Positions 1 through 51,944 of a stretch of DNA of 64,000 bases are shown here, one piece after another. A program made the position numbers and the translations under genes. Each line of letters begins with the position of its first letter. The first letter of the stretch is position 1. Where the stretch lies: positions 293,874 to 357,873 of the forward strand of contig CAJINV010000023.1 in assembly GCA_905178155.1 (NCBI GenBank), given 5' to 3'. The stretch is from Amoebophrya sp. A120. Lineage: Eukaryota; Protista; Dinoflagellata. The notes beneath the pieces were generated by a model. The model was not told the origin of the DNA. It saw only the letters and a program-made list of their open reading frames with translations, and made no database searches.

Positions 1-199
1 CATGACGATGACAAAGACAAGTTCGAGTTGCCTTGGCATTATATTTGAAGAATAAGAATAAGTAGAAAAATAGAAAATCAAAAACGACATCGTAGCGCAA
101 CGACAGTGAAAGAATTTCTTTTCCGTCAGCCAGAGCTGCAACTGGTACTAACCATGAAGCATAACACGCCTGCTTTGCTCCAGACACAAACATGTTTGT

Positions 200-22650: not shown

Positions 22651-25600
22651 ATGCTGGTCCTGGGTCTGCTTGTGTGTATGCTTCCGACGTCGCACGGTCT
22701 ACTCGCGGCGCCAGGTCAACATGGAGGTCGAGGACGTGCCTTAGCTTCATTGTCCTCTGACGCATCACACGAGGACCATGCAGGACGATCCCGCAGCCGC
22801 AGCCGCACGCCGCCACGTGGATTGCGGCCGCAGGAAGACCACCCCGCAGCCGCACGACAGCAGGTGCAGGCTCTTGTGATTGGTGAACACCACGATATGC
22901 CGCTCGCAGACCCTCTTCGTTGGATGTTGCGAAAACTCGCGGAGGAAAAGCAAATCGAGTTATTCGAGGGAGGTACACTGGTGGCTGAGGATGACCCGGA
23001 CGGCGAATTACATTCGTTTCAGATGGAAACCGCGTCGTTTTCTATTGTAGCCCTTGGTGGGAGGCCCGACGGCCCTTGGGACCCAAAGATACCTTCAGCG
23101 CTCGCAGAAGCTGCAAGAAGAAGCTCCGTGCTCGAAAGGTTCCTACAGGGCCTCCGAGATGGCAAAACAAACGCGGAAAAAAAAGACCTCTTGCAACTTG
23201 CAAATCAGGCGATGTTGCGGAAAATTAAAAATCTCCCCGGGGGGAACGATAACGATAACGAAGGTGGGCAGCAGCACGGGGTCCTCAGCGGCGGTTCCGC
23301 TAGTAGCGGGGAAGACCCTTCTTCACGCTGGACATTCGTCTCTGGCTCAGGCTTCACAAACATGGACGAACCAGGCTCCGGCTTCACGGAGAATGATTAT
23401 CATTTGGTAAGACGCCCCGACCCCAGAGTTGTAATGCAAGTCTGCATGCTGAGAATGTTTCTCATGCGAAGACCCATGAGAAGCAGTTTCTAATCGTGTT
23501 TTGGGATTTGTGATGCTAGAATCAGCACGTTATGCTAGATCTGTGATGCTGCTGAACAAGCTAAACCGGATTACACTACGATGCCAAACTTGTCATGCGC
23601 AACAGCAAAAGCTGACAGATCTGTCTAGCAGATTTCGCATCTCCACTCTGGTGTGGGGACGTTTTTACTCAGAATAATGATGTGCAGTTGCTCATGGAGG
23701 AGTTAAGGTTCAGCGTCGGTGTAGTACCATCCGTGGTCCACCCCGGAGAAGATGTTGCCGATAGCGGACGACCCAAATCGACGCAGCTAAAACCACGCAG
23801 TGACGCCGATATTTATTTACTATCGCAAGGGCGCCGGACCTTCAGGGAGCTGATTGACGGGTTCATCTCGGAGATGAACCTCCACACGAGTAGAGCCTCA
23901 CCGCTGAATCGCGAGCAGCATGGGCTTGAAGATTTTGTCGGAATATTGAATAGGTGCCTCGGACTCGAACAGCGCGGATTGCTTGAAAGCGATCCAGCAG
24001 AACGGGAACGGCAACTTGCCCAGCTCGTCTCGGAGAGACTTGCCGAGGGACCTGATTTGATGGAATGTTTGTCCAAAGACCTCAAAGAAGTGCCCGGCCG
24101 CGTGGCGCTGCTGATGGCGGGACTACAGGCTATCCGGGAGAAATATGGCATTGTTCTCAACTGTTACATTCTCAACTGTAGTTACACGGATTTGTCATGC
24201 AAAATTGCCATCGCCCTCGACTTGATCAAGGTGCTTAGCATGACAAAAAATTTTCGAAGGGCTAAGCAGCATGATATTAATCGGTGGAAAATCTGTAATG
24301 CGAGAGCTACGAAAATCTTGCCACTTTCACTGTTGCTGTAGTTCCTGCATATACAAAAATCCATGTAAAAACCGTTGAGAGTGTAAAAACATTTGAGAAC
24401 GCCATGAGAAGCTGGCAGAAGAGGTTTGCGAGAAATATTTTTCAGACCAGAAGACAGACGGCCGCGGGGGCTCTCGCTCTGCCTCAGCATCCGCGGCCGG
24501 AACCTCGTCGCGTTATAATTCCTGGCCACAAAACTGGCCTGCGCAAGACCGGCTCTCCGAAGGGGAGCAGCTCCAGATTCGGTTGCTGTGCAGAAAAGGC
24601 ATTTACAAAGAAGAGCTCACTCTTGGCAAAGACGATAGCAACAGGGGTGGGAAAGGTCTTTTTACGAAGACGAGAAACCTCGTTTGGATTCTGCGCGTGC
24701 TGGACAAGTGGGCCAAGCAGGGCGAGCTTCACCAAGTAGAACGTCGGGGTGCTTGGTATCCTGAGTAAAAACGTACCCATACCAGAGTTGTAATGCAGAT
24801 TTGCAAAGACAGGAAGACTTGTAATGCGCATCCCCATGAGAGCCATTTCCAGTCGTGTTTTGGAATTTGTGATGCTGTGAACAGGGTGAGCAGATGAATC
24901 TGTGGCGCGGCTGCACTTGCTAACCTGCACTGCGCTGCATAGTGCAACTTGTCACGCGTGACTCACCCTTGTCATGCGTGACTAATGTCCCGCCCGCAGG
25001 AGCGCAGTCTGTTTATGTCATGCGTGACTCACAAAACTCCTAGGTTTGTGCTGCAAAATCCCCATCCTGACTCTGGTGTGGGTACGCTTTTACTCAGGAC
25101 ACTTGGTCGCGGTTCCTTAGTACGGGTCGACGGTCGTCCCACGCGAAACTCGTCCTTCCGAAGGTCTTTGTCATGGGCAAAACGCACGTATCGCACTTCA
25201 AGCGCCGGCTACAGGAAGCGCGCCCCGACTTGCAAATCCAGGTTGCGGAGCTGAGCAGCGAGCGTGTCTGTCTGTCGGACATGTCGGACGTGTCGAACGA
25301 ATTCATCAGATCAATTTACTTGACCTCGGGCCCTTTCTACAAACAGTGGTCCGAGCTTGGGCGCGAGCTTGATTCATCTCAAAAAGGCCTTGCAACAATA
25401 TCAAATGTAAAAATGTCTGGGTCTGGAAGCATGCAACTTGTGACGCTGCGTCTGGATTCTACAAAAATCTTTATTGTATGAAAAGCAAAAGAGGTTCAGT
25501 CTTTGCCACGCCGAGAGGGTATTTCTCATGCGCTATAGGCATCAGGAGGCCCTCACAAAATCTGTGATGCTAGGGCATGCATCAGCATCACAAACATCAG

Positions 25601-26003
25601 AACTCATGCAAAATGTGCACGACAAACCTTGCATCCTTCCAGACCCAGACACTTCTGCATTTGATAAACAGAACTGTTGGACGAAATCCGAGAGAATATC
25701 CGGACACAACAAGAAGATGAAGATGAATCCGACGATAAATTCGAACATGAAGAATCCAGACATGAATCCGTTGTCGCTTCGAGTTTGAAAAGTAAATTCT
25801 TGGAATTTGTTCGCGAGACGAAAACAAGTGCTAGTGCAGAAGATGAGCTAGAAGGTGTGCTGAACTGGAGCCGGTGGGAGTATGTTAAGGACGGCAGGCT
25901 TGTGCACTGGTCAAACGCCGAGGGATTGATAGCGGTTCTCCGATTCCTGGCGACTAACGTCAAGACAAAAAATCCAGGCTGCAGCAACTGCGCCGTGATG
26001 TGA
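22651..26003 (+). CDS. Signal-peptide protein with TraB/TIKI/ChaN/EreA-like motifs; 5 exons
   Basis: Removing four DR-flanked inserts gives one open frame ending CSNCAVM*. Signal peptide MLVLGLLVCMLPTSHG; motifs LVIGEHHD, LVAED, RNLVW, VFVMGKTH. Family call is by eye only. Confidence 0.7.
23397..23680 (+). mobile_element. Non-canonical intron / introner, family C
   Basis: DR ATGAT; 3' TIR ACTCTGGTGTGGGGACGTTTTTACTCAGAATA; join END-VQLL. Confidence 0.85.
24143..24410 (+). mobile_element. Non-canonical intron / introner, singleton type
   Basis: DR AGAA; TIR TATGGC..TTCTCAA / TTGAGAA.GCCATG; join IREK-LAEE. Confidence 0.8.
24756..25105 (+). mobile_element. Non-canonical intron / introner, family C
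   Basis: DR CTTGG; TIR TCCTGAGTAAAAACGTACCCATACCAGAGT / ACTCTGGTGTGGGTACGCTTTTACTCAGGA; join GAW-SRFL. Confidence 0.9.
25398..25670 (+). mobile_element. Non-canonical intron / introner, family A
   Basis: DR AACA; 30-bp family A TIR; join GLAT-ELLDE. Confidence 0.9.
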
Positions 26004-28525
26004 GTTTTGACGAATTTGAGTCGTGGAGGTCTACCTGGCGTGGCTGCGAAGATTGATGATTATTTGAAAGAAGTCCTTGTGAACTACGCGCCATTGGCAA
26101 AGAACTCGAATAATAGGAGAAGTGGAGGTGGTGGAAGAGGCGGCGTGCGCAATCGACGAATGGAGAAGATTTCAAAAGAAGAACTACGTGTACAATAATG
26201 TCAACCAGACGGAAAAACCGACGAAGATTCTGTAAAAAAATGAATTTTGGATTGCAAAAAATAAAATTTTGAATTTTGAGCTCGATGCACAAGCACAACT
26301 TTATTTCAACCAAGCGCGAGCAGTTTCTAGCACGAGGAAAATAGATATTGATTTATCGGACAAAACAAGGAGGGCGGACGATGGGATGATGAGAAATTAT
26401 GTGGATGCAAATGTATTACTATTAGCGCGAGCAGCAGTTATCACGCAAATAAATATTGGATAAAATAAGGAGGGTGGACGATGGGATGATGAGAAATGTG
26501 GATGCAGAATAAAATTTGATTGGGGATGAAATGGTGGTGAAGGTGATGATGTGGTGGAAGAAAGAGGATTTGGCATTCTAGGACTAGAGGCTGACATCAC
26601 TACACGCGCATCATGGTAGTTCTGTGTGCGACGAGAAAGTCAGTCGCATGCTGCGGAGATGTTTCCGTCTGTTTGTGCGTTTTGCAAAGAAGCTGGGTGC
26701 AGCTGCGGGTTGTCGAGGGCTATTCGCTCCCATTCGCAACCACGCTGACCCAGCTTGAGATCTCACACATCTCACACTGTGGTCCACCACAGCACTGTGG
26801 AAGTAGATGATGACGGCGAAAACTAGTCTTTAACCAGGGATGATGAATGGGAACTATTTCCATTCGATGTTGACTAGTGCTAGAAGAATCTGTATGATTT
26901 GTAAGATTATTTTCGCGTTATGTTTCGTTTCTGTTTCATCTGATTGCAGAAGAAGGTGGATGTTTCTCTCCTTGAGGAGAAAGACGCCGGACTGGACAGG
27001 AAGACTAGAATGCCAGGCCATCTATACGAAACTACACCTAATATTCTTGAATAACAAGCACGATTTTTGGTATGACGAAAAATTATGGTTGAATAGCTCA
27101 AGGCCAGACTCGTGACGTCCACAGACTAACAAGTTCTTTGCTGCGTTTGTTTACGCCGCGCTGCAGTGTTCGAGGCAAGATGCAATGGTTTCTTTGAACA
27201 AAATGAAAACGTTGGTCGCCACTCACCCTCACGCTTTTCTCGTGGGTAGTTTGCGTATATGTTATTGGAGGTGCAGCTCTGTCTTTGCCAGAGATCTCAG
27301 TTACTATTTTCAGGTCAACCACACTCTTCCAAAGGCAAAGCTCGAAGGTCATAAAAATCAAATTTTTCTACGTGCGTTGTGGCGGTCAACAATTTGCACT
27401 TCGTCGGATCCTGTTGCAGTTTTTATGCAGCTCTTCGATCGATCCGGCGCCGATCTAAATCACTGATATGGTATGGTAAGTCAGTAAGTAGTTGGAATAA
27501 ACTCGGTGTTTTTGCACGACCGGATCATGTCCATCTCCGCTAAACGGAGATCCAAGTTGTTGTAGCTTCATCTCTACTTCTGTGTTTAAGCATTGATTGG
27601 TCCGCTTTTGATCGGACGATCTGATCCCCTTTTATAATTTTGACAACCTGTTTCCTCGTAGGTGCGTGTGTTGTTTCGTTGTTCGGAGGTTGTGTAGTTA
27701 AGACGCAGTTGCAGAGGAAAAATTGAAAATGAAGATAGAGCGCAAAAAACAAGCGTTCCAATCGACATGTTCGAGAAGAAGGACAACCTCATCCGAGAGA
27801 GGCCTCAGTCGACATCCAGCTCGGCGACACGAGGAGGAGAAAGTCCGGCCTTCATCATGTTCGACCTGCATGCTTCGCAAGTAGAAGTGAACTACTGCTC
27901 AGGGTATGATTTAATAAAGCCGGTAGTAAGTAGTTGTTTGCAGTTTGATTGTTTTCGTTGTTGAGTAGCCATTAGTTTAGATGTTCTCTCATCCTGGAAG
28001 GGGACCGCAGAAGATCTGCGCATCTAAAGAGCCAGTAATTTGTCCTTGAAAGAATCTATATTCATGGGAAATACCGCAACTTGCACGACTCAATCTCCAT
28101 CGACACAAAAATATATCATCTACTACAGGTACAGGTCGCCACGCGCAGTCCAACGTGTTCTTGGAGCAGGAAGCAAATTCCTGATTCTGCACGAGTTGTG
28201 GCATCACCCCACCGGCATCATGATGCAGGCGTTTTCATTTCCCGTCAATTCACGCGGCGCGACATGAGGATCTTCACTTTGACGCAGCTAGTCTTCGCAA
28301 CAAGATACTAGCCCTTCAAGGCCTGTGGTGCGTCTTGTTTGACAACTACCTCCTCGGCCGTACTGTAAAAGTTCTGCCTCGCCGCGAAGCATCTTCTCCG
28401 CGTTGATGTCCATCATGCAAAGCACCTGCCCCCCACAAGATGGCCGAGGGCATCAACAACGTGTCATCTTCGCGAGATCGAGACCGTCGCGGCCTCCCGC
28501 CTAGGCTAACAAGAAGCTCAAGCCC

Positions 28526-28808
28526 ATATCAACTGCAAAAATGTCTGGGTCTGGAAGATTCTGACACTTGTCATGCGCGTTTTGCATGAGCTGCGTTTTG
28601 CATGAGCCCTGATGCCTGTGATGCATGCCCTAGCAATACAGATTTTTTGAGTGCTTCTTGATGCCTATGCCGCATGACAAATGCCTTCTCAGCGTAGCAA
28701 AAATTGCATTCCCTTTGGTACTCATGCAATACAGATTTTTTTGGAAAACAAACGCAGCATCACAAGTTGCATTCTTCCAGACCTAGACATTTTTACATTT
28801 GATAGTCC
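28526..28808. mobile_element. Introner-like TIR element, family A
   Basis: Family A TIR; DR GCCCA/GTCCA; host gene unresolved. Confidence 0.85.
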
Positions 28809-30480: not shown

Positions 30481-32040
30481 GAACGAAAGCTCTGTCAATC
30501 CATTTTCTGTACCTCCGCTGAAACGAAAACTGCAAGAGAAGTTTTGAAGAACGAAAAGCGAAGTATCTTTCCACGTTAGTTTGAGACCTGGCTACGTGCT
30601 GACCCAATTGCGTTGTGTGTGTTCTGCGCTGATGAGCATTCAAAATGGAGTGGAACACGCCGGTTACTGTCCCGGTCTGCTAGATGATACGAAGTTCTAA
30701 GGCACAGGACCACGACGTATGTGTCGCTGAAACCAGGGTATTTGAGTCTATTTCATCGCTATTCCAGTAGCGCTGGGTACTTGATCGTGCAGAAGGCACG
30801 GCAGATGAGAGATGACGAAAAATAACACCTCGGAAACGTCGGTTCATCATTGAAATAGTGCGTATTCATTGCTAGAAACGATGGGCTACTCGTACTCATT
30901 GCAGAAGCCTCACCTCCCAAAGATATAACTCGATCGTCTGCGTTTTCACGTGCATTCTCTCGTCCAGAAACATTCTTTCACAGAACCCACTAAGTAAATC
31001 GCCCGAATGTTCTTTTTTGTACTCCCACACGAATAGACTTAGACGAAAAAATCACGTATAGAAGTAGTGTGGGTGTTCACGTTGTAGTATGCGTGGTCTT
31101 CCGCTCCTTCCCCGTAGTATTGACAGTCGCATGATGTTGGATCGATCAGTTATTAGTAGCTCGTTTCGTTTTGACCAAGGGAAGAGAGATCATCGATTGC
31201 GCTCGAGAAGTCGGGAGGCAGTTACGTACTTGGCATCACCACTGAAAGGAAGCCGACGTTCTTTTGAAGATCGGAAGCGTAATATGAATCTCATCTAGGA
31301 GTGGATCAGGCCCTTTCGACCGACTTTCAAAACAATGAAAATAGACTTCTTTTTTTGGTCTGCACCCGGGTTGGCGGTTGATGTGGTGTGGAGAGAGTTC
31401 GTTCATCGATAATTGAGCTGTACTTAGAAAGATGCGACAACAGAAGTACAGTCTGACTCTGGTACAGCTCTTCTAGCGACGCGGTTCTCCTTTACGTGGC
31501 ACAGGTTATTCGTTGCGGCCCGACAAGAATACCAGGACCGCCACTTCGACGTGGTTCCTCCAGTGTTGCTGAGCCAGTGGAGGCCGAGCATCAACCGCGT
31601 TGTGAGCTACTCTCTCATCGGGCTCCTGCAGCGAAGCTCCGGTTCCCCACCCCGCAGGGTGACTTCGTTTTCCGCGTTCCCTCATTATTTAACTCCGTGG
31701 TCGTTGAGGAGAGCGTCTTTATTTCGCGATCTCGAGTGGACTTTCAGCTGCCGCGTCGTTGCCAGTAGAGGACCGCGACTCCAGCGCTGCAACACGAAAA
31801 ACCGCAAGAGCAGCGCGACGAAGGACCACACGGAAGCAGGAGGCGACGTGCTCGCCCTCGTGATTTTTGCGGCAGCTTGTTGCTCCTACGGCTGGTACGA
31901 GGCAGTCGGACTACCTCCACGTGAACGAAGGACCGACTGGCCGAACTTTGCCTTCGCCGCCCCAGCCGACGATCTTCTTCTACCCTCGGACAAGAAGCAC
32001 TTGATCCCACCCGCACTACCCCCACCACCACCGACCCACC

Positions 32041-35000
32041 ATGGCGACCGCCGGTACGCGGAAGACCCGCAAGACGGGCATGATGGCGATGTCCGAGGAG
32101 GAGAAAAGGAGAAACAGCATGGAATTGCTGGAAGAGGAGAAAAAAGCCACCGACTTGAGTATGAATCTGTCAGGATTGAAATCGTCAAAGTTGAAATGGT
32201 TTGTCATGCATAAAATGCAAGGCATGAAGTGCCTGTCCTGCTGGGATGGCAAGTGAGGCAGATTGTGAGCCTATTCAGGGTTCGGGATAGAGTTGCCAAA
32301 GGAGCATGACAAAAGCACTTCTCTGTGCCCAAACAGCATGACAAATTGGATTTTGGTGCTCCGAAAATTTGTATCCATTTTATGCATGACAAATTATTTC
32401 AACTTTGTCGATTTCAAACCTGACGCTTCCATATTGATTTTCGACCTCGTGCGGTCCGGCACGCTTTTAGAAGAGCTCGACCAGGTTGATGTCACCCTCC
32501 TGCCAAAAATCAAGGACGTCTTCCAGAACACGCCGTTCCTCTGCGCCGCCGAATGCAAGAAAACGGACATCATGGCGTTTTTACTCGGGATATGAACTGC
32601 AAAAGTTAAAGTATCGTACTCGTATAAATGCATGACAAATTCTCTCAGCGTGAGAAATGAAATTTGCAATGCGGATTTACGTTGCGAAAAAAACTTGCGG
32701 TGCGTGACTGCAATACGAGTGCGATGCTTTTGCACTTGATACGGGAAGCAGGTATCCGAAGTCGGAGAAGTGTGTGCGAATACGGGCAACACCGCGTTGC
32801 ATCTGTCCGTTTTGAACGGAAATTTTGCCGGTGTGGAGCTGCTGTTGGGAAAGAAAGCCGAGCTGAACATCGCAAATAACGTCGGGTGGACACCGGTAAT
32901 TATGATTTTGAAATTCAATCTCAAACAGCAGCTGAAAATGCAAAATTTAAAGTTTTTGGAAGGCTTACATTCTGTACCTGTGCCATGGTGTGAATTTCGT
33001 TTCTCTGCTACTAGAAAGACTTGCTCAACATTGCTCGCTGAAAAGAGATCTATTCCGTTTTCCGAAAAAAAACAGCACCAAACATCAAAACCAAGGTTTT
33101 CCTCGCAGTTGCGCACAACCAGCCACAGTTGCTCACCTCGTTGATCCAGGCCAAGGCCGACTATGCAATGCAAAAGTATCGTACTCGTATAAATGCATTA
33201 CAAATTAGTCCAGCACTACAAATTCAAATTTGTAATGCTGATTTACCTTGAGGAAAAGATTTGTAATGCATAAATGCAATTACTACGAGTGCGATACTTT
33301 TGCACTGGATACCGACATCGCCAACGCCATCGACCAGGACGGCAATACACCCTTGCACCTCGTATCAAACGCAAATATGTCTGGGTCTGGAAGATTGATT
33401 CCGAGGTCTGTCATGCAGTTTGTCCAAGCTCCACCAAGTCTGGAATGCAGGGCCTAGCATCACAGGATCTGCAGCCCCTCTGTGATGCCTGTTTCGCATG
33501 AGAAATGCCCTTTCAGCATGGCGTGAAATGTTGCGCACCTTTTGCAAGTCACGCAACACAGATTTTTGCATGATCCGGAACATGCATCGCAAGTTGCATC
33601 CTTGCAGAGGCCCCAGACATATTTGCAATGCATAGCTCGCTTGCCAGTATAACAACGTCGATTTGACGTCCCAACTAGTCCTCAACCAAGCGAACCCGGA
33701 CGCAAGGAATTTCGACGGCCTCACCCCCCTAGACAACGCGCAGGAGCACGAGATCTGCAAGGCTTTTCTCCGGGAGGTGCTGGCGCAGAACCAGCAGTTG
33801 ATCTACGCGGCGCGGGACGGTGACACCACGAAAATCACGGAGATACTAGAAGACAACCCGTTACTGGTCAGGTTAGACAAGCGGGTAGACGGGATGTCCG
33901 CTTTGGAGTGGGCGGTGATGATATGCAACGAAAAAACTTAAACTGTTTCCCTGTGGTGATTTTGCACAATCTGCATCACAAGTTTGTTACGCATGACACG
34001 GAAAATCTTTAATGCGGGGTTCCAAAGGAAAAACACAGCTAGAAATCAATTGTCTTGCATGTGTGGCATGACACACACTTGTGCGATCCATTTTCTGCAT
34101 CACAAGTTCACAGTGAGGCATTTTCTTCTTGCGATAGATGAACGGGCACTATGAAGCCGTGCAAGAACTGGTGTCCAGTGGCGCGTACTGCAACATCCCA
34201 AGTCTGCAGAACTTTTTGAAGGTATAAAGTACTTATCAGATTTCAGAAGTTTGTCATGCCCATGCGCTGCGTCCTGCATGAAATTTTTGTGTCATGCTAG
34301 GTATCCTAACACTTCTAAAGATACGCTTTTCAATTTCACATCTAAACAAAAAATAGGTAAACGTCGACGACAATGAGACGCAGGATATGGTTCTCGAGGC
34401 CCTTTCCTGGAACGAAAATCTCCAGCTGGCCCTGAAGCAGGCCAACTGGGATGTGGCGTACACGTTAGTCGACAAGTCTGCCTGTGTTACTTCCCAGGAA
34501 CCCTTTACCGGCCGCACGCCCCTGCACATCGCGTGCTCCCACCTGCAGGAGGAGTGTCCGTTCGACCTCGTGTCGCTGTTAATCACGAAAAAATCGGACC
34601 TGACCGCCCGCGATGTGAACGGATGGACGCCGCTGCTCTGCGCGGCCAACGAGTATCAAATGCAAAAATGTCTGGGTCTGGAGGGATCCAACTTGTGATG
34701 CATGTGGCGGATCATACAAAAATCTGTGATGCGCGACTTGCAAAAGGTGCCAATTTTTGGTCATGCTGAGAGGGTATTTCTCATGCAGAACAGGCATCAC
34801 CAATGGGCTGCAGATCCTGTCATGCTAGGTCCTGCATTCCAGACTTGGCGGAGCTTGGAAAAACAGCATGACAAACTCCTGGACTCATCGAGACCCAGAC
34901 ATGTTTGCATTTGATAACGAGGGCCACTACACCACCTGCGCGTGATATCCAAGAAAAAAACGTTGTTAGTGTAAATTTGTGATGCGTAGTAACATGCAAG

Positions 35001-38000
35001 ATGATTGCGTCGTAAGGCTCATTAAAGGACGTTTTCGCGTACTATCTGCGCATGACAAGTTTTTGCTGTCATGCCAGACAAATTTGTAATGCTGGTCCTC
35101 CAAAAAAGTTACACCTACCACGTTTTTTTCTTGGATACGTGTATTCTGAAGCACGCGACCATGCAGACCCCGGCGCCACCACCGGGGCAGACGCAGGAGA
35201 AAGTCACGGTCGCGAACTCGGTGCTGCAGCCAATATTGAGAGCAAAATCCCCCGTCCCCATGTCGAAAGGGTATGTTTCCGAAAATTTGTGATGCTGATT
35301 TGAGAGCACAAATCACGTCTGTCTTGCAAGAAGACAAGCGCAGAGGCTTCCGCGCCATTATGGAAGCGATTATTTGGCATGCTGTTGGCCCTAGGGGGCA
35401 GCCGTTTGAAATGCTAAACAACTAGACCCAAACGCCCCTACCTAGGCTGAGGGTCTGGATGCGCTGCCTTATTACAAGACAGCGCGCATTTACGTACGGA
35501 AATCCAGCATCAGAAACTTCGTCTCGATATGTGGAGGGGGGATTTTTCCTCACGATAGCCAAACTTCGAAAACGTGTCGCCAATATCAACGGCCATCATG
35601 CGGGACGATGTGGTTCTAATCCGGATATGCATTGCAAAAGTATCGTACTCGTGTAGTACTTGCAGTTCTGCATATACAAATCTAAATTGTTAAGCTGAAT
35701 CCGCATTGCAAATTCAATTTGTAATGCTGAGCAAATTTGTATTGCAATTTGTACCAGTACGAGGCTCTTGCAATCCATACCGGATCTTCGCCGATCACGT
35801 GGAAATGAACAAGGACTCTTTTGCGCGGATGGAGCTCGCACCCTGGACCGATTTGGCAGGAGAAGGGGGGAAGCCGGCAGTGGCCTTTTTGCTCTTTCAC
35901 ACCATGAGCTTCCAGTTCAAGTGCGAGGTAACTATGATACGTAGACTGAATGGCTCGATTTGTTCAGCGTGTAATTGCGGTCTTGAAACCTGTTCATCCG
36001 CCGTGAATACTTGATTTTGGATGCACATGCAGAAAAGTGCATCACAGATCGTGTGTTGTACCTAAGTAGCAATACACATTTTTCTGTAAATACAAATCAG
36101 GTAAAGCAAATTACGCCGTACGTGATGAAGTGCGCCACTAACGCGTTGCAGAGGTCACACCTATCCCACGGGAAAATTTAACACCTAGGTTGTCTACTAG
36201 GAATGTCGCTTGTTGTGTTGCAGTTTTTGCAAAGCCAAACAGGTGGCTATAACAATTGTGCCTTCTGCAGCACAAACAGGCGATCCTTTGCAAATTGTAG
36301 AAGGAATCGTGATCTCTGAGCATAGGTTTTATTTAAGTTGATTGTCGAGCAAGAGCAAGATTGGTAAAATTTTCCCTGGCACATTTTCGCAAAAGAGAAC
36401 ACTTCCGAACAGCAAAAGCCATCTTGGAGGCCACTGCACCGGCAGACGAATACGAGAAAGTCAATTGGGAGAGGGTATAAACTGAATAAATTTAAATCCT
36501 GCTGCTTGAAACAATTTTTTTGTCATGCGGAACTGGGTACGGGAACAATGAATTCGACTACATGCGGGCTTGTGCATGTGAATGTTGTACCACTAGCAAT
36601 ATTCTTATAGAGGCCGTGCGATTAATGGACCCCCTTTTCGGTACCGAAAAGGGGGGGGTAGGTGCGGTCGGTCATCTGGCCGCATCCAAAAATGGTCGCG
36701 TCCCTCCGGACCCGACCGATTTTCGGAATTTAAAAATCGAAAACGCAAATGCGTAACTCCCCCAACCCGGCGAAATAAGTTCTGTTTTGTTTTCAGCGGT
36801 TTCTCAGCGGTTATAATCTCTGCTGCTGCGGTTCCTGCAGCGGCGTGGCTGGAAGTAGAACAGAACGAAACAGAACAACATAAGTTTCGTGGGGCGCACA
36901 CAGCGCGCGCGTGGATTGGCTTATGTTTGCAACAACGCAAGAAGCATCAGGCGCACGCCGTGCGCGCGCAAACTGAAAAAAAAAAAATGCCGCGCGCGCC
37001 GCGTGCGCGCGGCGAAGAGCATGCGTCGTGCATGGCTATGTCAGGACGCTGCGAAGCATTTGCACACAGCTGGAGCTGGCTTCGTGCAGTTCGATGCACT
37101 TCTACTTCAGCAGGCCCACTGCGAATACGAGAAAGTCAATTGGGAGAGGGTATAAATTGAATAAATCCTGCTGCTTCATCAGTTTCATTGCATAAACGAA
37201 AAAAACAAACTTTTTGTCATGCGGAACTGGGTAGGGAAACAAATTGTTTCCCTACCCAGCCCGCATATTTATAGTCGAGTTCATTGTTTAACAATGAACT
37301 CGACTATAAATATGCGGGCTTGTGAATCATGCGAACGTACCACGAGCAATATTTTCAAGTAGAATCGCCACCAGAATTTCATGTGATATATGTGATCGTT
37401 CGCACGTTTTCAAAATAAAAGTGCTGTACAAACTCCATCTCTGTCAGGTATTCAGCCAAGCCCCGGACAAATTTAAAGAGCTGTTGGAGTTCGAGCTGGA
37501 GGTGGCCGTGCGTGACAGCCGACCGAAGGCAAAAGCAAAGGGCAAAGCGACCGGAAACAGCAGCACAACGTCACCCGCCAAAGCTGCGCCGGCGGTTACG
37601 AAACAAGAGACGGAGAAGAAGACAAACCGGAAAGGAAGTCTCACGGGTGACATATCGAATGCAAAAATGGCTGGGTCTGGAAAAGTGCAACTTGTGTTGC
37701 TTGTCTAGCATTCCTGAAAAACCTGTCTTGCATGAGCAGCAAAAGAACAGCTTCCTCGGTCAGGCAAAAACGCAATTTGTAATGCGTGCTAGGCATCAGA
37801 GAGCGTCCCATAAACTTGTCATGCTTGGCTGCGATTGCTAGCGCTACTTCAATCATCCGCAATTCAGCATCACAGGTTTATTCCAGACCCAAACATGTTT
37901 GCATTTGATACGACAAGAAGGGTGACAAAAAACGAAAAACAGGTGAAGAGGAAGACATCATGGCCGGTTTTTTCGGCAGCATGCAGAAACTCAGGTGTCA

Positions 38001-41000
38001 CACCTTACCGACAATCTGCAAAATCGACGCGGAATATTACAAGCTGGGCAAGGTATGAAAATGAAAACGTGGTTTGGTTGCTGTTTTGTCATGCAGGAAT
38101 CATTCCCATTCACACCTAAAGTACTGGAAAACAAGAGGCTCATCATGATGCTGAAGGAAATCGCGAAATTACAGTTCGAAAAAATATTACTGATCCACCC
38201 ACGCCCTATTAAACACACCACAACAGAAAGAGCAAACCCAGTTGCTGATGAGTCCGAAGATCTGCACGTCGGTGGCCATTATGAACTGCAAAAGTATCGT
38301 ACTCGTACAATAAATGCATGACAAATTTCCTCAGCATGAGAAGTAAAATTTGTAAATGCGGGTTTGCCTTTAAAAAAAGATTTGTAATGCATGATCGCAA
38401 TACGAGTACGATGCTTTTGCAGTTGATAGCCATCGAGCTCCTCCTAGAGCGCCGCGCGGACCCGAACATGTTCGACGTGGTCGGGCAAACACCGTTATCC
38501 AATGCAAATATGTCTGCGTCAGGAAGAATGCAAGTTTGTCATGCTTGTGTCACATGGCTCTTGAACCTGTAATGCGTGAGCAGGAAAATAAAAGCCTCTT
38601 ACCTGTCATTGGTAAATGTAGTTTGTCATGCGTGGCTGCTTATTGCAATGCTCCAACAATTCATATCAAATTACCATCACAAGTTTCCAGACCCAGACAC
38701 ATTTCTTTGCACTGCATAGCCGTTATTTTTCCACGCAGGAAAGGATTTGGGCTTGGACAAGTTTGACTCGCAGAACTCCCGATCCGCGTTCTTTTCCGAC
38801 TCCAACTCTCAACCCGGATCGCCAACCGCAGGAGGGGGATCGTCCCCACGAAGCCCGAAATCCCCGAAGATGCTGCGCGGAACCGTTTTCGGCGAGCTGC
38901 AATTACGGCACGCCGCGGCGAACGAGAAGCGCGGGCAGTACCAGACGGAGTTACGGAAGAAGGACTACGCGACGGCCTTGGACAACGCCAGGGAGGCGCG
39001 CATGATCGTGAAGCAGCTGCTGATCAGCGGCGCGGACTGTAATCTGAAGGACAACGCGGGGCGGAGGGCAATTGACTTCGCGAAGTATCCTGAGTAAAAA
39101 TGTCCCCAACCCAGCAGAGTTGTGATGCAAAGCTGCATGCCAAAATAAAAAGTTTCTCATGCGGAGCCCCATGAGAACCATTTTGTAAGCCTGTTTTGGA
39201 ATTTGTGATGCTAGAATCAGCATGATATGCTACATCTATGATGCTTCGGAACTAGCTAAACAGGATTACACAACGAGGAGAAACTTGTCATGCGAAACAA
39301 CCAGAGGTGGCTGATTTGTGTAGCCGATTTTTCATCTTGACTCTGGTGTGGGGACATTTTTACTCAGGATACGAAGGACCCGGTGATCAAGCAGATGCTG
39401 CGGGTGGCGCAGGTCGAGAAGACGAAACTGTACGCTTTGGAGAGCATGAATCTGCAGATTTTGGAGCTGCGGGTCGAGGGGTTGCCGATGAACAAAGAGT
39501 ATCAACTGCAAATACGTCTGGTCCTGGAAACTTGCAATGCTGGGCCGGGATGAATAGTGAATCCTCTGTAATGCACAGCCAAGCATGAGAAATATGTGCG
39601 CTGCTTAGTGTTGCGCTTTCCGCAAGACAAGCTGCGTCGTTGCGAGACAAGTAAAAGGGTTTCTTCTTGGATACGCATCACAAACTCTTCAGTCATACTG
39701 GACAAGCATGACAAACCTTGCATCCTTTCAGACCCAGACATTTTTGCACTGCATAAAGGGCCGAAGTTTCTCATCGCACGGCTGGAGGATCTATCCACAG
39801 TAAGTTTCCCGTACACGTACAAATGCGGTTTCCGCATGACAAAACTTGGTTTCAATCCTAGTCCAGCATGACAAGTTGGGCTCTGCAAAGTTGGGCTCTG
39901 CAAGGTAGCGAAATTTGTCATGCATTTCGTACATGCACAGGAAATTTACATTGCATATGATCTGTTTCGAAAAATCGGGTTGTCGGTCATAAACAGGGAT
40001 GATATGAAACTGCACAATAAACTCTTCTTCCTTTCATTTGTACGGCATGAACAGCAACACAAACTGCAGCACATGTGGATTCTGTACATGAGAAATTCAT
40101 GCGCCTAGAAGTGTCGTTTTGTTTATTAAGCCGCTTCCGGAATCCGAGTCTGTCATGCAAACTGTGCCTTGACGAGGGAAGAGGAAGTGGTCAGCCTCAG
40201 CGCTATAGCCTTGGACTTTTGCATGACAAACGATGGGGGACGAGGGGTTGTGCAATCTCATAAATGATGACGACGACCCAGACGTGACCGACATTAGAAT
40301 CCCGGTCGGCAGCGTGGACCAGAAGCCGCTTGGGTAAGAACTTACTTACCATTTTATAAGCGAAATACGCATGAGAAAAGAGTGCACTGTAGTTCATCCA
40401 GCATGACAAATGAATCGACTTTTTTAAAATTACAAAAACGCAGGTACGCCATTGTGCGGCTGCAGAATCAGACTCCGAAGATATCCTGTGCAAGAAAAGT
40501 ATCGTACTCGTACAAATGCTAATGCAAGTCTTGCATTACAAATCTTGTTTCCAAGGAAAATCTGCATTACAAATTTTATTTCTCATGCTGAGGAAATTTG
40601 TAATGCATTTGTACGAGTTGCGACACTTGTTTTGCAGTTCATAGAAGAACCGCTTCAACGAGATTCAGGATGTGCTTGACCACTGCATGTTGTACAACGA
40701 AAAGACGTATCAAATGCAAACATGTCTGGGTCTGGAAACTTGTAATGCTGAGTTGTGAATAGTGAATTCTCTGTAATGCACAGCCAGGCATGGGAAATAT
40801 TTGCGCTGCTTAGTGTTGCGCTTTCCGCATGACAAACTGCGTTTTGCATAACAAGCAAAAGGGTCTCTTCTTGAGCACGCATCACAAACTCTTCAGTCAT
40901 GCCAGAAAAGCATGACAAACCTTGCAGCATTCCAAATCCAGACATATTTGCAATGCATAAGACGCTCACTTACCGCACGCGGGACAAGTTCCTCGAGGAC

Positions 41001-41408
41001 ATCACGCTCACCGAGGATCTGAGTCTGTCGCACCTCTCCAAAAATGGTATGCAATGCAAAAGCATCGTGCAACTCGTAGTTGTAATGGCAGGCATGCATT
41101 ACAAATCCAGATTTCAAGGTAAATCCGCATTACAAATGACATTTGTAATGCTGAGCAAATTTGTAATGCAATCCATACTAAGTAGTACGAGACTTTTGCA
41201 ATGCATAACCGGCAACGCGCAGCAAAATGAAGTCGCCCCCGGCTGGAAGCTGGTCCTGCTGAACGGGCGACAAATCTCGCACCTCCCCCTCAGCGAAATT
41301 ATGGCGGAATTAGGGCGGATGAAGGAGAAGCAGAAGGTTTTCATCGAGGTCAGAAACCCCAAGCCGCTCGGCAGAATGCGGATCTTCGTCGAGACGCACT
41401 TCGAGTGA
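32041..41408 (+). CDS. Ankyrin-repeat protein with a C-terminal PDZ-like domain; about 28 exons
   Basis: Manual splicing restores ankyrin repeats across junctions (QNTPFLCAA, GNTALHLSV, GWTP-VFLAV, GNTPLHL-ACQY, GRTPLHIAC, GWTPLLCAANE-GH, GQTP-LFF) and a PDZ-like tail (KN-GNAQQNEVAPGWKLVLLNGRQI). There are 19 DR/TIR introns, 6 GT-AG introns (32896-33095, 34222-34356, 35928-36100, 36475-37447, 39800-39940, 40334-40443) and 2 short uncertain ones. Confidence 0.9.
32159..32437 (+). mobile_element. Non-canonical intron / introner with about 55-bp TIR
   Basis: DR TTGA; TIR GTCAGGATTGAAATCGTCAAAGTTGAAAT / ATTTCAACTTTGTCGATTTCAAACCTGAC; join ATDL-IFDL. Confidence 0.85.
32590..32745 (+). mobile_element. 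Non-canonical intron / introner, family B
   Basis: DR CGGGA; join FLLG-KQVS. Confidence 0.9.
33161..33315 (+). mobile_element. Non-canonical intron / introner, family B
   Basis: DR CCGAC; join AKAD-IANA. Confidence 0.9.
33362..33638 (+). mobile_element. Non-canonical intron / introner, family A
   Basis: DR CCTCG/GCTCG; join TPLHL-ACQY. Confidence 0.9.
33921..34140 (+). mobile_element. Non-canonical intron / introner
   Basis: DR GATGA; join EWAVM-NGHY. Confidence 0.9.
34653..34920 (+). mobile_element. Non-canonical intron / introner, family A
   Basis: DR ACGAG; join CAANE-GHY. Confidence 0.92.
34945..35141 (+). mobile_element. Non-canonical intron / introner
   Basis: TIR TATCCAAGAAAAAAACG / CGTTTTTTTCTTGGATA; DR CGTG; join TCAC-ILKH. 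Confidence 0.9.
35233..35561 (+). mobile_element. Non-canonical intron / introner, family D
   Basis: DR GCCAA; TIR AAAATCCCCC / GGGGGATTTT; join VLQP-NFEN. Confidence 0.85.
35625..35783 (+). mobile_element. Non-canonical intron / introner, family B
   Basis: DR CCGGA; join VLIR-IFAD. Confidence 0.9.
36160..36383 (+). mobile_element. Degenerate non-canonical intron
   Basis: TIR remnant GGGAAAATTT / AAATTTTCCC; DR CACA; join QRSH-FRKR. Confidence 0.6.
37652..37914 (+). mobile_element. Non-canonical intron / introner, family A
   Basis: DR TGACA/CGACA; join LTGD-KKGD. Confidence 0.88.
38279..38432 (+). mobile_element. Non-canonical intron / introner, family B
   Basis: DR GCCAT; join SVA-IELLL. 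Confidence 0.9.
38495..38722 (+). mobile_element. Non-canonical intron / introner, family A
   Basis: DR ACCGT/GCCGT; join GQTP-LFFH. Confidence 0.88.
39085..39375 (+). mobile_element. Non-canonical intron / introner, family C
   Basis: DR CGAAG; TIR TATCCTGAGTAAAAATGTCCCCA / TGGGGACATTTTTACTCAGGATA; join DFAK-DPVI. Confidence 0.92.
39499..39759 (+). mobile_element. Non-canonical intron / introner, family A
   Basis: DR AAGAG/AAGGG; close relative of 40707-40963. Confidence 0.85.
40002..40266 (+). mobile_element. Non-canonical intron / introner
   Basis: TIR TATGAAACTGCACAA / TTGTGCAATCTCATA; DR GATGA/AATGA; join INRD-DDDD. Confidence 0.8.
40481..40647 (+). mobile_element. Non-canonical intron / introner, family B
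   Basis: DR GAAGA; join QTPK-NRFN. Confidence 0.9.
40707..40963 (+). mobile_element. Non-canonical intron / introner, family A
   Basis: DR AGACG; join NEKT-LTYR. Confidence 0.9.
41047..41211 (+). mobile_element. Non-canonical intron / introner, family B
   Basis: TIR TATGCAATGCAAAAG / CTTTTGCAATGCATA; degenerate DR AATGG/ACCGG; join SKN-GNAQ. Confidence 0.85.
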
Positions 41409-43154
41409 AGCAGTTGCTGTACCCTCGACAACTGATAGGTAAAGTAGGGTCTTTTAATTCGACGAAAGAAAACGAAAGCCAAGAATTTAGTACTACTCCG
41501 TGTACAATGTAGTTCTTTCGTGAAGAAGATAGGCGAGCCTGATACCTTCAGGCTAGGAAGAATTTATTGACACTCGAAAAAATTGTACGATACTTGCTTA
41601 GCACAAGTGTGGAGATATAGTAGCACTACCTGACGTCGGATCACTCCAAAATGTACAACCTGACTCTGCGTTTTACTTTTTGTGTCTCTTAACTACATTT
41701 GAATTGCCGTATTGTTTCCATAATCTAACCGTGTTTCTAGTAGCCTGTGAATTCGATTTTAGCTATTAAACTTCGTATAGTAAAAGCGTCTGTAGTCACA
41801 TCAACCCGCACGTTGATGATATGGCTTGGACCTGTCCGTGGTGTTATCTATCATTTGACTCCGACCGTTTGAATTATTCGACAAAATATTTCTGACAAAA
41901 GTATCAAAAGCTACAAGTAGGTACTATCGATTGCCAATTTTTTTCTGCCGAATTTGAAACAAAGTAGTGTTTTGTGTTGCCAATTATCATGTAAAAGTGC
42001 GAAGAAAAGTCCGCATGCGCAGCGGACCGCTTTTGGTGCAGGTCATGCACAAAAAGCTGACAAATATTTATCCGTCCTATTCTAACGTTTCTTAACAACA
42101 ACTATAGGTAGCAACTCTTTTGTCTTGATTGAATTTCGACTCTTCTTGTATTTATTACCGTGCTTAGCTCGATATTGGAGCCAGTTGTGATCTCTTTTGG
42201 AAACTATTTCGCGAACCTGTATAGTATGACGACATCGATGGCAAGTTGAGCTCTCGTTTCAAAGAGCATTGTACATATTGCATTGATAAAAAGAAAAATG
42301 AAACCTAGTCGACCTGTTATTCTGATGTCGAACAGGCCTCATAAAGTTGTCAGTGGCTTCCGAAACAAAAACTATCGTTCCTGTTCGCCTCTCACCACAG
42401 CATTGCGATCTCATGAAATTACGTGTTTCGATTTTTTTGCTTTGTCCCTTCGTTGTCATGCTGGTAGTTTCCTGATCCGCCTGATGTCGCTTTTGATATT
42501 TTTACAGAGATTGATGGTTCATTTGGTTTTGGAAGATCCTTTTAGTACATTTTTCACAAAGAAGGCGAAACGCAAACGGATCAGAATCCTTTAGTGTGCA
42601 GATCAAAAGAATTATGGGTGGTCCTCCGGCGAATTAAACGCGTAGGATAGATTTCCGTCCTTCCGCTGGTGTTAAGCACGTACCAGCAGATCATGCACAG
42701 TTTTTCTTTTTGTTTTTTCGTCAATCACGATAAAAATGATTTTCCTCTAGGCTTGCGCTTGTGAAGTAAGACATACAAAAGTGAGCAAGTGTCTGAGCTT
42801 GTGGGTACTTCGTTTTGAGTTTTTTCTGCGAAAAATCTAAAGATGCGACAAGAACTCTTCTCCGCTGTGACAGCGCCTGTATAAGGCCGTCAGAAATAAA
42901 CGCAGTGTACGACGGGGCCGCTGACGCGTCTAGGCGGCATCCTGTTGTGAAAGAAGCCAGAAGTAAATGAATTTGGGCAGCTCTTCCTGTGCCTTTTTGC
43001 CGTAATCGTCGAGCCGTGAAAATTGAAAGGCATTACATTATGTGTAGTTAAAGATGCCAAGAAAAAACCGGTCCGGCAAAAATGTTGATCACGACCAATC
43101 GCTGCGACCAGAGATTATCCCAAATTGGGGTGCTTCACGACGACTAGCGTGAAG

Positions 43155-46100
43155 ATGATGAGCGGTCACGAGCATCATAGAGCGATGTCTATTGAAAAAT
43201 GCTCGAGTGTATGCACATCGCCTCCGCGGGCCGTCCGGACGAACACGGGCAACGAAGGTGGTGGTACGGCGGCGACCTCCCCGGCGGCGGTTACCGCGGT
43301 GGACAAGGTCGGTTTGGCCGTGGCCCCCACTTGCACTTTTATTGCGCCGAATAAAAGCAGCGGAGGTCTAGGTCGTGTTGGCGGACGCGCTACCGTGGAC
43401 GAGGAGATGAGGATAGAAAACGCAGAGATGATGCCCGAATCGATGAAGGGCATGATGAAGAAGAGATGGAAAGCCAGAAGATTATCGCTTCTGCCCTGTG
43501 GTACCATGAAGGTCATCAAGGTGGTCGACTACTTCGAGGATTCCGCCTCCGTTACCAGGACCAGCACAACCAACGAGAGTTCATTGCGTCTACCTGCTTT
43601 TCATCGTGCATACCAACCGCGAGGCATTTCAGCAGAAGAGCAAGAGCGCGTTAGCCAAGTTCTTCGAGATGGCGGAGGTGGCCCACACCACTGCCCCGCC
43701 AGGCCAAGAGCATGTCGCAGGAGCTGTTGCAGTGCCACGACTCGAGCAGGACAACGTTTCGGTGCGGCAGCGGCGACTGCTTCATCTTTGCCACGCAGGG
43801 CGTGTAGCTCGTCGTCACGGGGAGGTGGAATTCCGCGGTGTCAACAACATCCTGGGAGCTGGAGTATCAAATACCGAAAACTGATCGCGCAAGAACGCGT
43901 TACAAAGTACGCGTGCGTAGCGTCGTCTACATTCTTAAAGCATGACGAGAAAAAGAAAACACAGTGCGACGACATGGGCTTTGTGTATGGGTGTGTGGTC
44001 GCCGACGTGGCGGTTTTTCATTCGTTAAGTGTAAGAACCAGAGGTGGCATGTTCTTTGACATTTTCTGCTCGTCCACCAGCAAGTTTTCGATTCCATATC
44101 ACCACTGCATAGATGTTTGCTGCTCTTGCTCACCGTGCAGTGGTACGACATCACAGACTTCTTGTTCTGCCCTTTTGCACCACCATCGCGGGGGCCGTGG
44201 GGAGATGAGGACATGAGCTGCACTTCATCGAGACCTTCGACTGCTGCGTCGACACGACCCGCAACTACAAGGCACGACCAGGGCGAAGATGATCATCTCC
44301 AAGGAGAGTTGTGCGTAGTTGGTCGTGCTAGAACTACAACTACGAAACTCCTCCCGCGGAGGAATACCGACATCACACGACCACCTTCGACAACGACATC
44401 AGCCTGCTCGTATAGTAACACCTTCGGTGCAGCAGGAGCACACGCTATAACGCTCACTCGCCTCGGACACCGGGTGCAGATGAAGACCAAGCTTCAGCCA
44501 CGCGGCGTGGGAGCTGCGCGTGCCGCAGCTGCGAAGAGCAGCAGAGAAGGAAGTGCTACAGGTGGTCGTGGTGGAGGCACGACGATGAGGACGGCCGCAG
44601 GAGCATCAAATTCAGGGTCACCCGGGCGGAGGAAGGACAAGGACTCGTCGTCGTCGTCCGACAAGGCCAAAAATCCAGCGCCCTCGAAAAATAAAACGAA
44701 CCCGGCTGCTGTAGTGCCCATGGAGGTCGTCGACGATCAGCTGCTATCCCGTGAAAAATTTCACAAATTTAATGCAAAATAAAGGATGATCGCAGACATG
44801 CATGACAGATTTGGATCTCGTGTTTTGCATTCTGGTTTTTATTTGGTATCAGTACGTAGCAAAATAACACGCGAGTTTACGATTTTATTCTGGAGGAAGG
44901 TAGTTTTTTCAGCTCCAGTGAATTTTTCCTCCTGTACCTCTTCGAATCTCGAGCTTGTTAAAACAAACTTTTTGCGATGCATAGCGGCAGGACACCAGTA
45001 AATCTTCTTCGTTGACAAGCACCACACCCTCTTCCAGCTTCAAAAGCCCCAGCATCGTGCCGACTGCTGTAGCCGTGGCAGCTCCTGTTGGGCGAGAGGA
45101 GCTACCGCAGAAAACCTCGCAGCAACCGAACCTATTGGCGGCCAACAACAACGGCGTCAAAGGCCGCGAGTCATCTGGCGGGTCTACTGCTGCTGTTTCC
45201 TCCTCCTGTGACGCATCTTGCAAGTCGGACGAGAGCGGCAGTCGACATCATCTACCAGGCGGAGGTATGATCCAAAAAAGAGACGTGTGATCATGTCGGT
45301 GCAGCTTTTTAGGTATTGAGATTGACTTTAGAGGAGCATATTAAGCGTAAGATAAATAAAGTAGTGCTGCTGTTTCTTGGCATCAAGACAAAAAGCTGTC
45401 ATGCGCATCACAACAGCGGTGTGGTTGGCATTGGCCTATGTTGTTGGCATATAATGATGAGTACGAGTAAATAGATTGACAGTGACACACGTTCCTTTTG
45501 CCATACGGGGCCCTGCCACCAACGTGGGCTGTGCTGGTGGAAACAGAAGCGCAGACGGCAGCTGCTCGTCGCTGTCCAAGTTGGCCTCGAGCTTTTGCCG
45601 GTGTTTTCGCAAGAAGAGCTCCGGGCTGTCGAGTGGTGATCAACATGTGTCGCCCTCTCCAGCTGCAGTCGATAATTATGAGCAGCACGTGGAGGAAGCA
45701 AACGTCGTCTCCCCCCCGCGGGCCTCTGGTCATCGTCCACCAAGCCGCGGGCTACAAGGCGCCCCCGAGGATGGTGCTGCAGCAACCGGTGGAGCCGCCG
45801 TTGTGCCAGATGGAGAAACGACTAGTACGGCACGAGGACCTGGAGGTGCAGCAGCAGGGCCAGGGGACCTGCAAGCAGGAGGAATTGCAGGACGAGCAGC
45901 AGGATCCTCTCCGAAAGCAGGACGTCGGGATGAAAGCATGAAATATCAAATGCAAAAATGTCTGGGTCTGGAAACTTGTGATGCTGTGTGGCGTATCATG
46001 AGGAGGCCACAATTGCGGGCTCAGCATGACAAGTTCCTGAGCCTCTAGGTGTTGCCTATTCCGCATGACAAACTACTTCTGTGCATGACAGAAAAGTTGG

Positions 46101-46650
46101 GCTCTTTGGTAATGTGCATGACAGATTTAAGAATCATGCCAGACAAGCATGACAAACTTGCATTCTTCCAGACCCAGACATTTTTACATTTGATATGAAA
46201 AGCGCCAGCGCAATCGTCGAGGAAGAGATGAACCCTTTTCACGAGGTATCAAATGTAAAAATGTCTGGGTCTGGAAGAATGCAACTTGTGATGCTGCATT
46301 TGGATTCCAAAAAAAACTGTATTGCATGAGTACCAAAGGGAATGTAATTTTTGCTACGCGGAAAGGGCATTTGTCATGCGGAATAGGCATCAAGAAGCTC
46401 TCCAAAAATCTGTGATGCTAGGGCATGCATCACAGACATCAGGGCTCATGCAAAACGTGCATGACAAGTGTCAGAATCTTCCAGACCCAGACATTTTTGC
46501 ATTTGTTACGAGGTGGAGGCCACGGCAATCACGAAATCTGCGACCGCTGGTCAAACGCTAGGGGATAAAGAACATCCCACGGAACAGGACGACGCTGCTG
46601 TTGCAATGTCGGTGACGGAGGAAAGTCGAGTCTCGCAAGATATGATGTGA
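43155..46650 (+). CDS. Low-complexity S/T/A/G-rich hypothetical protein, multi-exon (5' part unresolved)
   Basis: From about 44117 onward, removing 44744-44987, 45265-45482 (GT-AG), 45943-46199 and 46246-46512 gives one frame ending SQDMM*. The link to the 43125 ORF is not resolved. Confidence 0.6.
44744..44987 (+). mobile_element. Degenerate non-canonical intron
   Basis: TAT...ATA ends; DR GCTGC/GCGGC; join DDQL-QDTS in frame with the 45012 ORF. Confidence 0.7.
45943..46199 (+). mobile_element. Non-canonical intron / introner, family A
   Basis: DR TGAAA; near-perfect 30-bp TIR. Confidence 0.9.
46246..46512 (+). mobile_element. Introner, family A, with GT-AG ends supplied by its direct repeat
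   Basis: DR CGAGG; join PFHE-VEAT. Confidence 0.9.
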
Positions 46651-49760: not shown

Positions 49761-50444
49761 CCCAAATTGACGACTGTACAGCATACACGCACAGACGCAA
49801 TTTTTGACACAGATGATTGCCAATATACGAGCGGAAGCGGCTCTTTTGCCTGTGCTCTATCTGCATTGCATACATTTTTTTATTTTGTTATACCAAGTTA
49901 TTAGCACCGCGATACGAAGATTGCAACCGCTGCTATTCCAAGTATATGCTGCTATGTGCTGCACGCAAAAATGCGGAAAAGTTTGAGTATTGATCAAGCG
50001 ACGGCGCATTTTTTTCCATACAGGCCGAGGAGATGCCACAAATCACACCGGTATCGATATCCTACAGAAAATCACATCTTCCAGAGGCATGATATTAGCA
50101 CCAGAAAATAAGAAAGTCAAGTTGCGGGGTTGACTGCTACAGAAAAGGTTCTTGATTGCTACTCAGGGTTTGGGACCACCTCTTTCATTTTAAATCCGCT
50201 ATGAAAATGATTTATAGCGATATGCACGACGCCTGTCCCTGTGCATTGCCTCTCTTGTGGTCATGATATGCGCAAAAAGATTGCAGACCTTTTTCTGTAG
50301 CGCGTGTCGCTACACAGACTCAGTTTTTGGCACCATTTTTGGGGGTTGTGCTTTTCCGCAGGATAATGGATAGAACATATCAAGGGCGTCCTCGACATGT
50401 TGAAAGACAAAGTAGAGAAGCGCGGCGCGAAGGTTCCACCTATG

Positions 50445-50629
50445 TATCCTGTGCAAAAGTATCGTACGTGCTGTACTTAATTGCATGCGTAACAAATTTC
50501 CTATTCCTCAGCATGAAGCATGGATTTTGTGGAAAAGATCAGGTGCTGGGAAACAAGATGTGTGACCATGCTGGTGCATACCTGCAATTTAGGACGAGTG
50601 CGATATCATGAATTCTTTTGCAATGCATA
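50445..50629. mobile_element. Family B element within a duplicated segment, copy 1
   Basis: TATCCTGTGCAAAAGTATCGTAC ... TTTTGCAATGCATA; DR not evident. Confidence 0.7.
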
Positions 50630-50631
50630 TT

Positions 50632-51814: not shown

Positions 51815-51944
51815 TATCCTGTGCAAAAGTACTATCGTACGTGGTAGTAAGTAATTGCATGCGTAACGAATTTTCTATTGGGGAATTCGAATTGTCCCTC
51901 GAAGAGACAGCCATGACGAGTGCGATATACTTTTGCGATGCATA
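51815..51944. mobile_element. Family B element within a duplicated segment, copy 2
   Basis: Same termini and same insertion context as 50445-50629, with a shorter interior. Confidence 0.7.

Follow-up and report, generated by a model that had tools for sequence, protein, structure and literature searches.

The introner elements of Amoebophrya sp. A120 are described by Farhat et al. (2021, PMC7789003) as introns of ~240 nt with non-canonical ends, bounded by inverted repeats (TAT, 7 nt, AAA) and by direct repeats of 3–5 nt; single A120 genes are reported to hold tens of them (PMC12130899). Farhat et al. call the splice positions variable or unknown, and the removal of Amoebophrya introns that do not have consensus ends has been an open question since 2021. 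In the main text of that paper the words 'strand' and 'lariat' are absent, 'orientation' is used of gene blocks rather than of elements, and nothing is put forward as a branch site. No fixed register, orientation tally or branch site for Amoebophrya was found in the literature, with subscription journals sparsely covered and with PMC7789003 represented by its text, Figures 3 and S19–S25 of which may show part of the register.

Similar to this system are the introners of Polarella glacialis, which are transposon-derived and carry duplications; several classes of them, like those of Aureococcus, form introns both ways round and favour one of the two (bioRxiv 10.1101/2020.10.14.339549); introners in both orientations are credited to Huff 2016 by PMC10228655. 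Insertion in two directions is already known from Polarella and Aureococcus, and is by itself a modest observation because it is expected of inverted-repeat introners; the additions made here are a cut register and an asymmetry between the element ends. Those two systems, as described, draw their GT, GC or GA sites and their AG sites from either the element or its duplication, whereas +1, -2 and -1 are unconstrained at the locus reported here. Introns of Fritillaria borealis also have transposon-like repeats, duplications, mostly non-GT/AG ends and U2-type removal (PMC13326754, PMC11282704), but have AG-AC and AG-AT as their prevailing ends, in a species that retains U1, whereas A120 has no prevailing dinucleotide and no U1 was found. 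Nonconventional euglenid introns share paired ends, duplication-like repeats and the lack of a pyrimidine tract, and differ in their CAG/CTG pairing (+4..6 with -8..-6), pyrimidine–purine junctions and circular products; the machinery that removes them is given as unknown (PMC11282704, PMC11170887).

The window, the whole 64,000-nucleotide stretch of A120 DNA analysed here, contains a gene in which two copies of one introner lie in opposite orientations, referred to as alpha (A-like) and beta (B-like).

32041–41409, plus strand: ankyrin-repeat host gene encoding 1037 aa; it holds 20 introners of the TAT..ATA type and 6 GT-AG introns
33362–33638, plus strand: intron A, made up of 1 nt, element A (33363–33634, alpha) and 4 nt under the register inferred below, ends GT..TC; joint 33358>33636, 277 nt, slide up to 4; duplication CCTCG/GCTCG
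34653–34920, plus strand: intron B, made up of 1 nt, element B (34654–34916, beta) and 4 nt under the same register, ends GT..GA; joint 34647>34916, 268 nt, slide up to 6; duplication ACGAG/ACGAG

The spliced model of the host gene is identical residue for residue to P0001, a 1037-aa protein of Amoebophrya sp. A120 that is an annotation dependent on RNA data, and that was the sole protein returned, at 100% identity, by an exon search restricted to lengths of 210–2000. Twenty joints of the model were seen among those listed and six were modelled, the modelled stretches agreeing in length with contigs (414 and 316 nt). Three of five scanned exons match Pfam ankyrin families, including those beside A and B, and retention of A or B brings the frame to a stop at codon 209 or 412, respectively, in line with the original prediction that both must be removed to restore the ankyrin repeats. 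Runs X3 and X6, which come from two samples of one study and are presumed to be RNA, have one contig each with both joints, and contigs of these runs that skip introners skip GT-AG introns too. A and B are thus precisely skipped, in both orientations and without GT-AG, in transcript-like contigs, which bears out removal at the RNA level. Raw reads of the RNA run X9 match poorly: 31 could be aligned, and 97% of these continue in a way that differs from the window. At the listed joints the contigs leave out the element and a further 5 nt, which is one copy of the duplication, and none of the 20 introners of the gene has a GT-AG placement. An Rfam search of 32000–41500 gave no match.

Three GT-AG readings were considered and rejected: those of A (277 versus 274 nt) and of B by the contig joints, and that of the intron at 39792 by the 316-nt contig count. 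For A, an in-frame GT-AG alternative that adds one Leu exists and is absent from the assembled contigs, though contigs drop rare variants.

The two elements are inverted copies of each other, as had been claimed for their interiors. After trimming of 35 nt at either end, A and reverse-complemented B are identical in 167 of 202 columns (score 289.5; 500 shuffles gave a mean of 61, s.d. of 8 and maximum of 90), against a score of 88 for the same-sense alignment; over the whole elements the identity is 227/281. The two 44-mers quoted in the original prediction occur once each, at 33434 and 34805, and agree as reverse complements at 42 of 44 positions. Each element is bounded by a 5-bp direct repeat and ends in inverted repeats of ~30 bp beginning TAT. 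Among the 40 curated TAT..ATA elements of the window, 31–38 match at each of the five positions of the direct repeat, and the match falls to 16/40 and 12/40 just outside it. Inverted ends, duplication, short length and multiple copies are the hallmarks of MITEs, and all four are found in the introner family: the elements are non-autonomous DNA transposons whose insertion duplicated 5 bp of target. They belong to the published A120 introner system (Farhat et al. 2021, PMC7789003), having the TAT/7 variable nt/AAA repeat, a 3–5-nt direct repeat and RNA-supported, repeated non-canonical introns.

The family and the other introners that bear on the cut are as follows, A and B apart.

25399–25666, plus strand: family copy, beta, in a gene further upstream; the cut precedes TAT by at least 1 nt
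28527–28804, plus strand: family copy, alpha; end of an X6 piece at 28523, host frame plausible only
34946–35137, plus strand: introner of another family; joint 34940>35138, slide up to 4; cut at least 1 nt before TAT
36162–36383, plus strand: degenerate introner; joint 36160>36388, slide up to 1; cut 0 or 1 nt before TAT
37653–37910, plus strand: family copy, beta, in the ankyrin gene; joint 37648>37912
38496–38718, plus strand: family copy, beta, diverged, in the ankyrin gene; joint 38491>38720
39500–39755, plus strand: family copy, alpha; an unequal duplication places the cut 0 or 1 nt before TAT, from a contig piece ending at 39498 that fits the 316-nt count and P0001 residue 867, the joint lying outside those listed
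40708–40959, plus strand: family copy, alpha, in the ankyrin gene; joint 40701>40959
45944–46195, plus strand: family copy, alpha; a beta copy follows 51 nt downstream within the same open frame
46247–46508, plus strand: family copy, beta; GT..AG under the register
55429–55699, plus strand: family copy, alpha; codon-model strand call weak

The copies at 45944, 46247 and 55429 are called from DNA alone. Sixteen family copies were compared, nine alpha and seven beta (that at 13229 weakly so); the ankyrin gene holds six, three of each orientation, with joints listed for five. The introns starting at 25398 and 46246 had been said to run opposite to the one at 55428, and they do: the interiors of 25399 and 46247 score 168 and 182 against 55429 in the opposite sense and 32 and 23 in the same sense (shuffle maximum 27), with RNA support at 25399 only, where pieces 25102–25393 and 25667–27076 are contiguous in X3 record 9. 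The host frames of 25399, 46247 and 55429 are assigned to the plus strand from ORF length after removal (259, 214 and 225 codons).

Two further features touch these families. A family copy at 4047–4321, whose host strand is ambiguous, has CAT and ACA ends and would start G-TGT if read on the minus strand, which would fit the pattern of G compensation given below. A duplicated stretch at 50387–50700 and 51760–52040 holds the same short GTATCGTAC-family introner in each copy.

To place these counts in a larger set, we used related loci from one metagenome assembly, in which a 28-nt repeat pattern drew out at least 128 loci (472 kb) from 46 of 64 parts. A symmetric end model applied to these loci yielded 421 unique elements; on the window it retrieved 36 of the 40 curated elements, and on a shuffled version of the window none. 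As the finder was trained on TAT..AAA-type ends, end frequencies lean to consensus. Strand was called by a codon model trained on the related loci, which gave plus for all 27 of the 43 window elements above threshold and was concordant in 767 of 770 within-locus pairs. The family accounts for 116 of the 269 strand-called related elements, 45 of them alpha, 70 beta and 1 unclear (P 0.025), and both orientations occur in 16 of the 23 related loci with at least two family copies, splicing there being deduced from open frames. The longest same-ended elements in the fetched related loci measure 481–697 nt: L016:570–1051, L017:3861–4492, L023:3532–4028 and L046:764–1461 are such longer elements; they have the ends of the family and 5-bp duplications without mismatch.

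Removal that is indifferent to orientation, from elements with TA at both ends, recalls programmed DNA excision. Ciliate IESs are short, transposon-derived and TA-bounded at both ends, and are removed at the DNA level leaving one TA. The introners here are still present in DNA and their junctions retain no TA, and element-skipping contigs also skip GT-AG introns. In run X1, which behaves like DNA and may be the source of the assembly, contigs at a depth of 42–47 run from exons into elements, including B, and the joined form is absent from X1 contigs at all five of the listed RNA joints (four introners, those of A and B lying outside the list), a count in which joints may be missed and rare variants dropped by contigs. 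Of the three options first offered for removal, RNA splicing by an endonuclease and ligase, a heavily modified spliceosome and ciliate-like DNA excision, the last is very unlikely and the modified spliceosome is the likeliest.

The position of the cut was approached through unequal duplications, because identical duplications hide it. Elements 34946 and 25399 rule out a cut at TAT itself, in the former because TGA would otherwise enter the frame, and 36162 and 39500 rule out a cut 2 nt or more before TAT; 41048 and 28527 are consistent with a cut 1 nt before it. From these, assuming uniformity and with two elements per side from RNA, we infer a single common register: in the direction of the transcript, the intron starts 1 nt ahead of TAT and closes 4 nt beyond ATA. 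When six uniform registers were tried on the gene, only this one (k = 1) gave P0001 with 0 differences; it is also the register of the intron coordinates in the original prediction. In the related loci a stop-codon test of register had 0 informative cases in 269 elements and a codon-likelihood test was likewise without discrimination, and an excess of phase 0 (122/269) is compatible with k = 1 and k = 4 alike. Within this one family, the register could in principle follow the orientation of the element instead.

Under the register, TAT falls on +2 to +4, as does the corresponding part of GTA(T/A) in the six GT-AG introns of the gene, all of which start GTA and three GTAT. T is at +2 in 39/40 and A at +3 in 40/40, which comes partly from selecting TAT ends. 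The terminal dinucleotides depart from the U2-type combination of GT or GC with AG: GT occurs in 116, AG in 42 and both in 11 of 396, GT and AG each being at background level. Positions +1, -2 and -1 are free of constraint under the register.

The original prediction took the two orientations to mean that no strand-specific branch point or pyrimidine tract is needed. This does not follow: two orientations do not exclude linear signals, because the ~30-bp inverted ends are identical from either side, and signals inside them could be read alike both ways. Nor is the missing tract special to the introner, because the six GT-AG introns of the gene, by eye, have none either. The companion claim, that a symmetric stem of the inverted repeats defines the cut sites, is not favoured over linear signals, the register being asymmetric (1 nt and 4 nt).

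The two ends are also conserved differently in the direction of the transcript. Among 354 strand-called elements of the related assembly, 11 depart from T+4 against one from A-7, its mirror (P 0.006), and one departs from T+2 against six from A-5, its mirror (P 0.125), in post hoc tests that have few events and may include inherited repeat variants. In a strict set (n=307) the counts are 9 versus 1 and 0 versus 4, and in the strictest (n=262) T+4 versus A-7 is 7 versus 1 (P 0.07). Seven of the nine T+4 changes in the strict set are T>C, which breaks the pair, and A>G, which keeps a wobble, occurs once; the excess of T>C over A>G is therefore the reverse of what a stem predicts. G is at +1 in all three clean TGT starts (P 0.025, or 0.077 if one doubtful element is added). 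A-7 is kept in 353/354 elements, with TNA around it in 116/269 only, a share that tells against a classical branch adenosine in a YUNAY-like motif; in the window, 46247 is the only element without A at -7. The variable stem positions are without covariation, with repeat positions 4, 5 and 7 complementary at 0.49, 0.54 and 0.38 against 0.56, 0.57 and 0.41 expected (142 family copies).

These data bear on a ruler model, in which the spliceosome cuts, the hairpin alone measures the cut sites and the terminal sequence is kept only for the transposase. The GCAAA core lies at constant spacing from both cuts, the base profiles of the two element ends are nearly alike, and Farhat et al. propose a hairpin joining exon boundaries (PMC7789003). 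Against this model stand the direction-dependent conservation of T+2 and A-7, the preponderance of pair-breaking over wobble changes and the lack of covariation; in addition, the terminal TAT/ATA is predicted to be unpaired in 5 of the 20 spliced gene elements, including A, and paired in 15. Taken together, they make the hairpin-only reading improbable.

A second possibility is that a spliceosome-independent nuclease and ligase recognise the repeat hairpin and release the intron as a circle or a linear molecule, as is proposed for the nonconventional introns of euglenids, whose paired-end introns are reported to leave as circles (PMC11282704). The freedom of +1, -2 and -1 would suit such enzymes, as would the repeat core, predicted to be paired in 17/20 gene elements and in 90% of 60 sampled elements, the strong folding of B (z -8.6) and a U1 undetected in A120 (PMC7789003). 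On the other side, A folds at only z -1.4, and the degenerate 36162 has lost its duplication (1/5 match) and has no predicted end pairing, and is skipped nonetheless; TAT sits exactly at the canonical +2 to +4. No conserved IRE1-type loop was seen in the curated elements. A bulge-helix-bulge site consists of a 4-bp exon-intron helix between two 3-nt bulges. By eye, the flanks are variable direct repeats, and therefore no such exon-intron helix is possible. A nuclease and ligase are thus somewhat unlikely to be responsible.

The introners are probably removed by a relaxed U2-type spliceosome that reads signals carried in the inverted repeats. A spliceosome is favoured because TAT matches the GTA introns, because k = 1 alone gives P0001 and because the conservation of the ends depends on direction. 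To our knowledge, no spliceosome tolerates both terminal dinucleotides free, which counts against this model. In A120, 83 of 89 spliceosomal proteins are reported as kept and U2, U4, U5 and U6 as present, with U1 undetected (PMC7789003), and the non-GT/AG introns of F. borealis are stated to require the U2 spliceosome (PMC13326754).

Read in this way, both orientations of the element would present the same repeat-borne signals to the spliceosome, and the register N/N-UAU...AUA-NNNN/ (cuts at the slashes) would be set by the direction of the transcript. The TAT of the repeat would serve as +2 to +4 of a GUA-like 5' site, with +1 free. Weaker steps are that the A opening the final ATA (-7) may be the branch nucleotide, that the 3' cut may be measured from this A, and that the GCAAA/UUUGC repeat core may pair and so bring the ends together; in Entamoeba invadens a branch point is predicted at -8 (bioRxiv 10.1101/2022.06.08.495308). 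The stronger form of the relaxed-spliceosome model, offered tentatively from sequence patterns, is that the A120 spliceosome may have dropped both terminal dinucleotides and take every signal from the inverted repeat (UAU at +2 to +4, branch A at -7 and a 7-nt count). If so, any insertion in either orientation, at any 5-bp target, would make a perfect intron, which would set the minimum sequence that a spliceosome needs and explain how a transposon can saturate coding DNA harmlessly. A fixed register with direction-dependent conservation yields exact predictions, namely the branch position, the essential bases and the outcome of mutants that separate stem from sequence.

Other repeats occur within and around the ankyrin gene. 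In 32041–41409 the motif TTGTnATGC, counted on both strands, is found at 44 places in the 20 introners and at 5 in GT-AG introns but nowhere in the 3166 nt of exon, a distribution that suggests transposase sites, and that some of the GT-AG introns are old introners. As a branch site readable both ways, TTGTnATGC was rejected, its 3' copy being not commoner than the 5' mirror (94 versus 126). The 973-nt GT-AG intron at 36475–37447 has, near 37117–37330, a second copy of the end of the preceding exon and the start of the intron.

Elsewhere in the window, 46780–49759 is a ~3-kb block of CATGAGA-type short repeats with perfect 118-nt inverted repeats at its edges, flanked by CAAAC and ACCCA with no clear duplication; the repeats probably account for its frames without stops, which reach 278 codons. 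A tandem array of an 84-bp unit (~28 copies, 97% alike) spans 56985–60887 and is interrupted by a 93-nt inverted pair at 57253–57345 and 58322–58414, whose flanks, CAGCGG and AGCGG, are possibly a 5-bp duplication. Either side of the gene at 12300–15300 are tandem arrays with a unit of ~308 bp (9687–11531 and 15912–18064; 74–99% alike), and an array of similar length to these lies at 2410–3690. Two long, similar-looking frames with hydrophobic stretches, at 5900–8400 and 18800–21700, have no detected introners.
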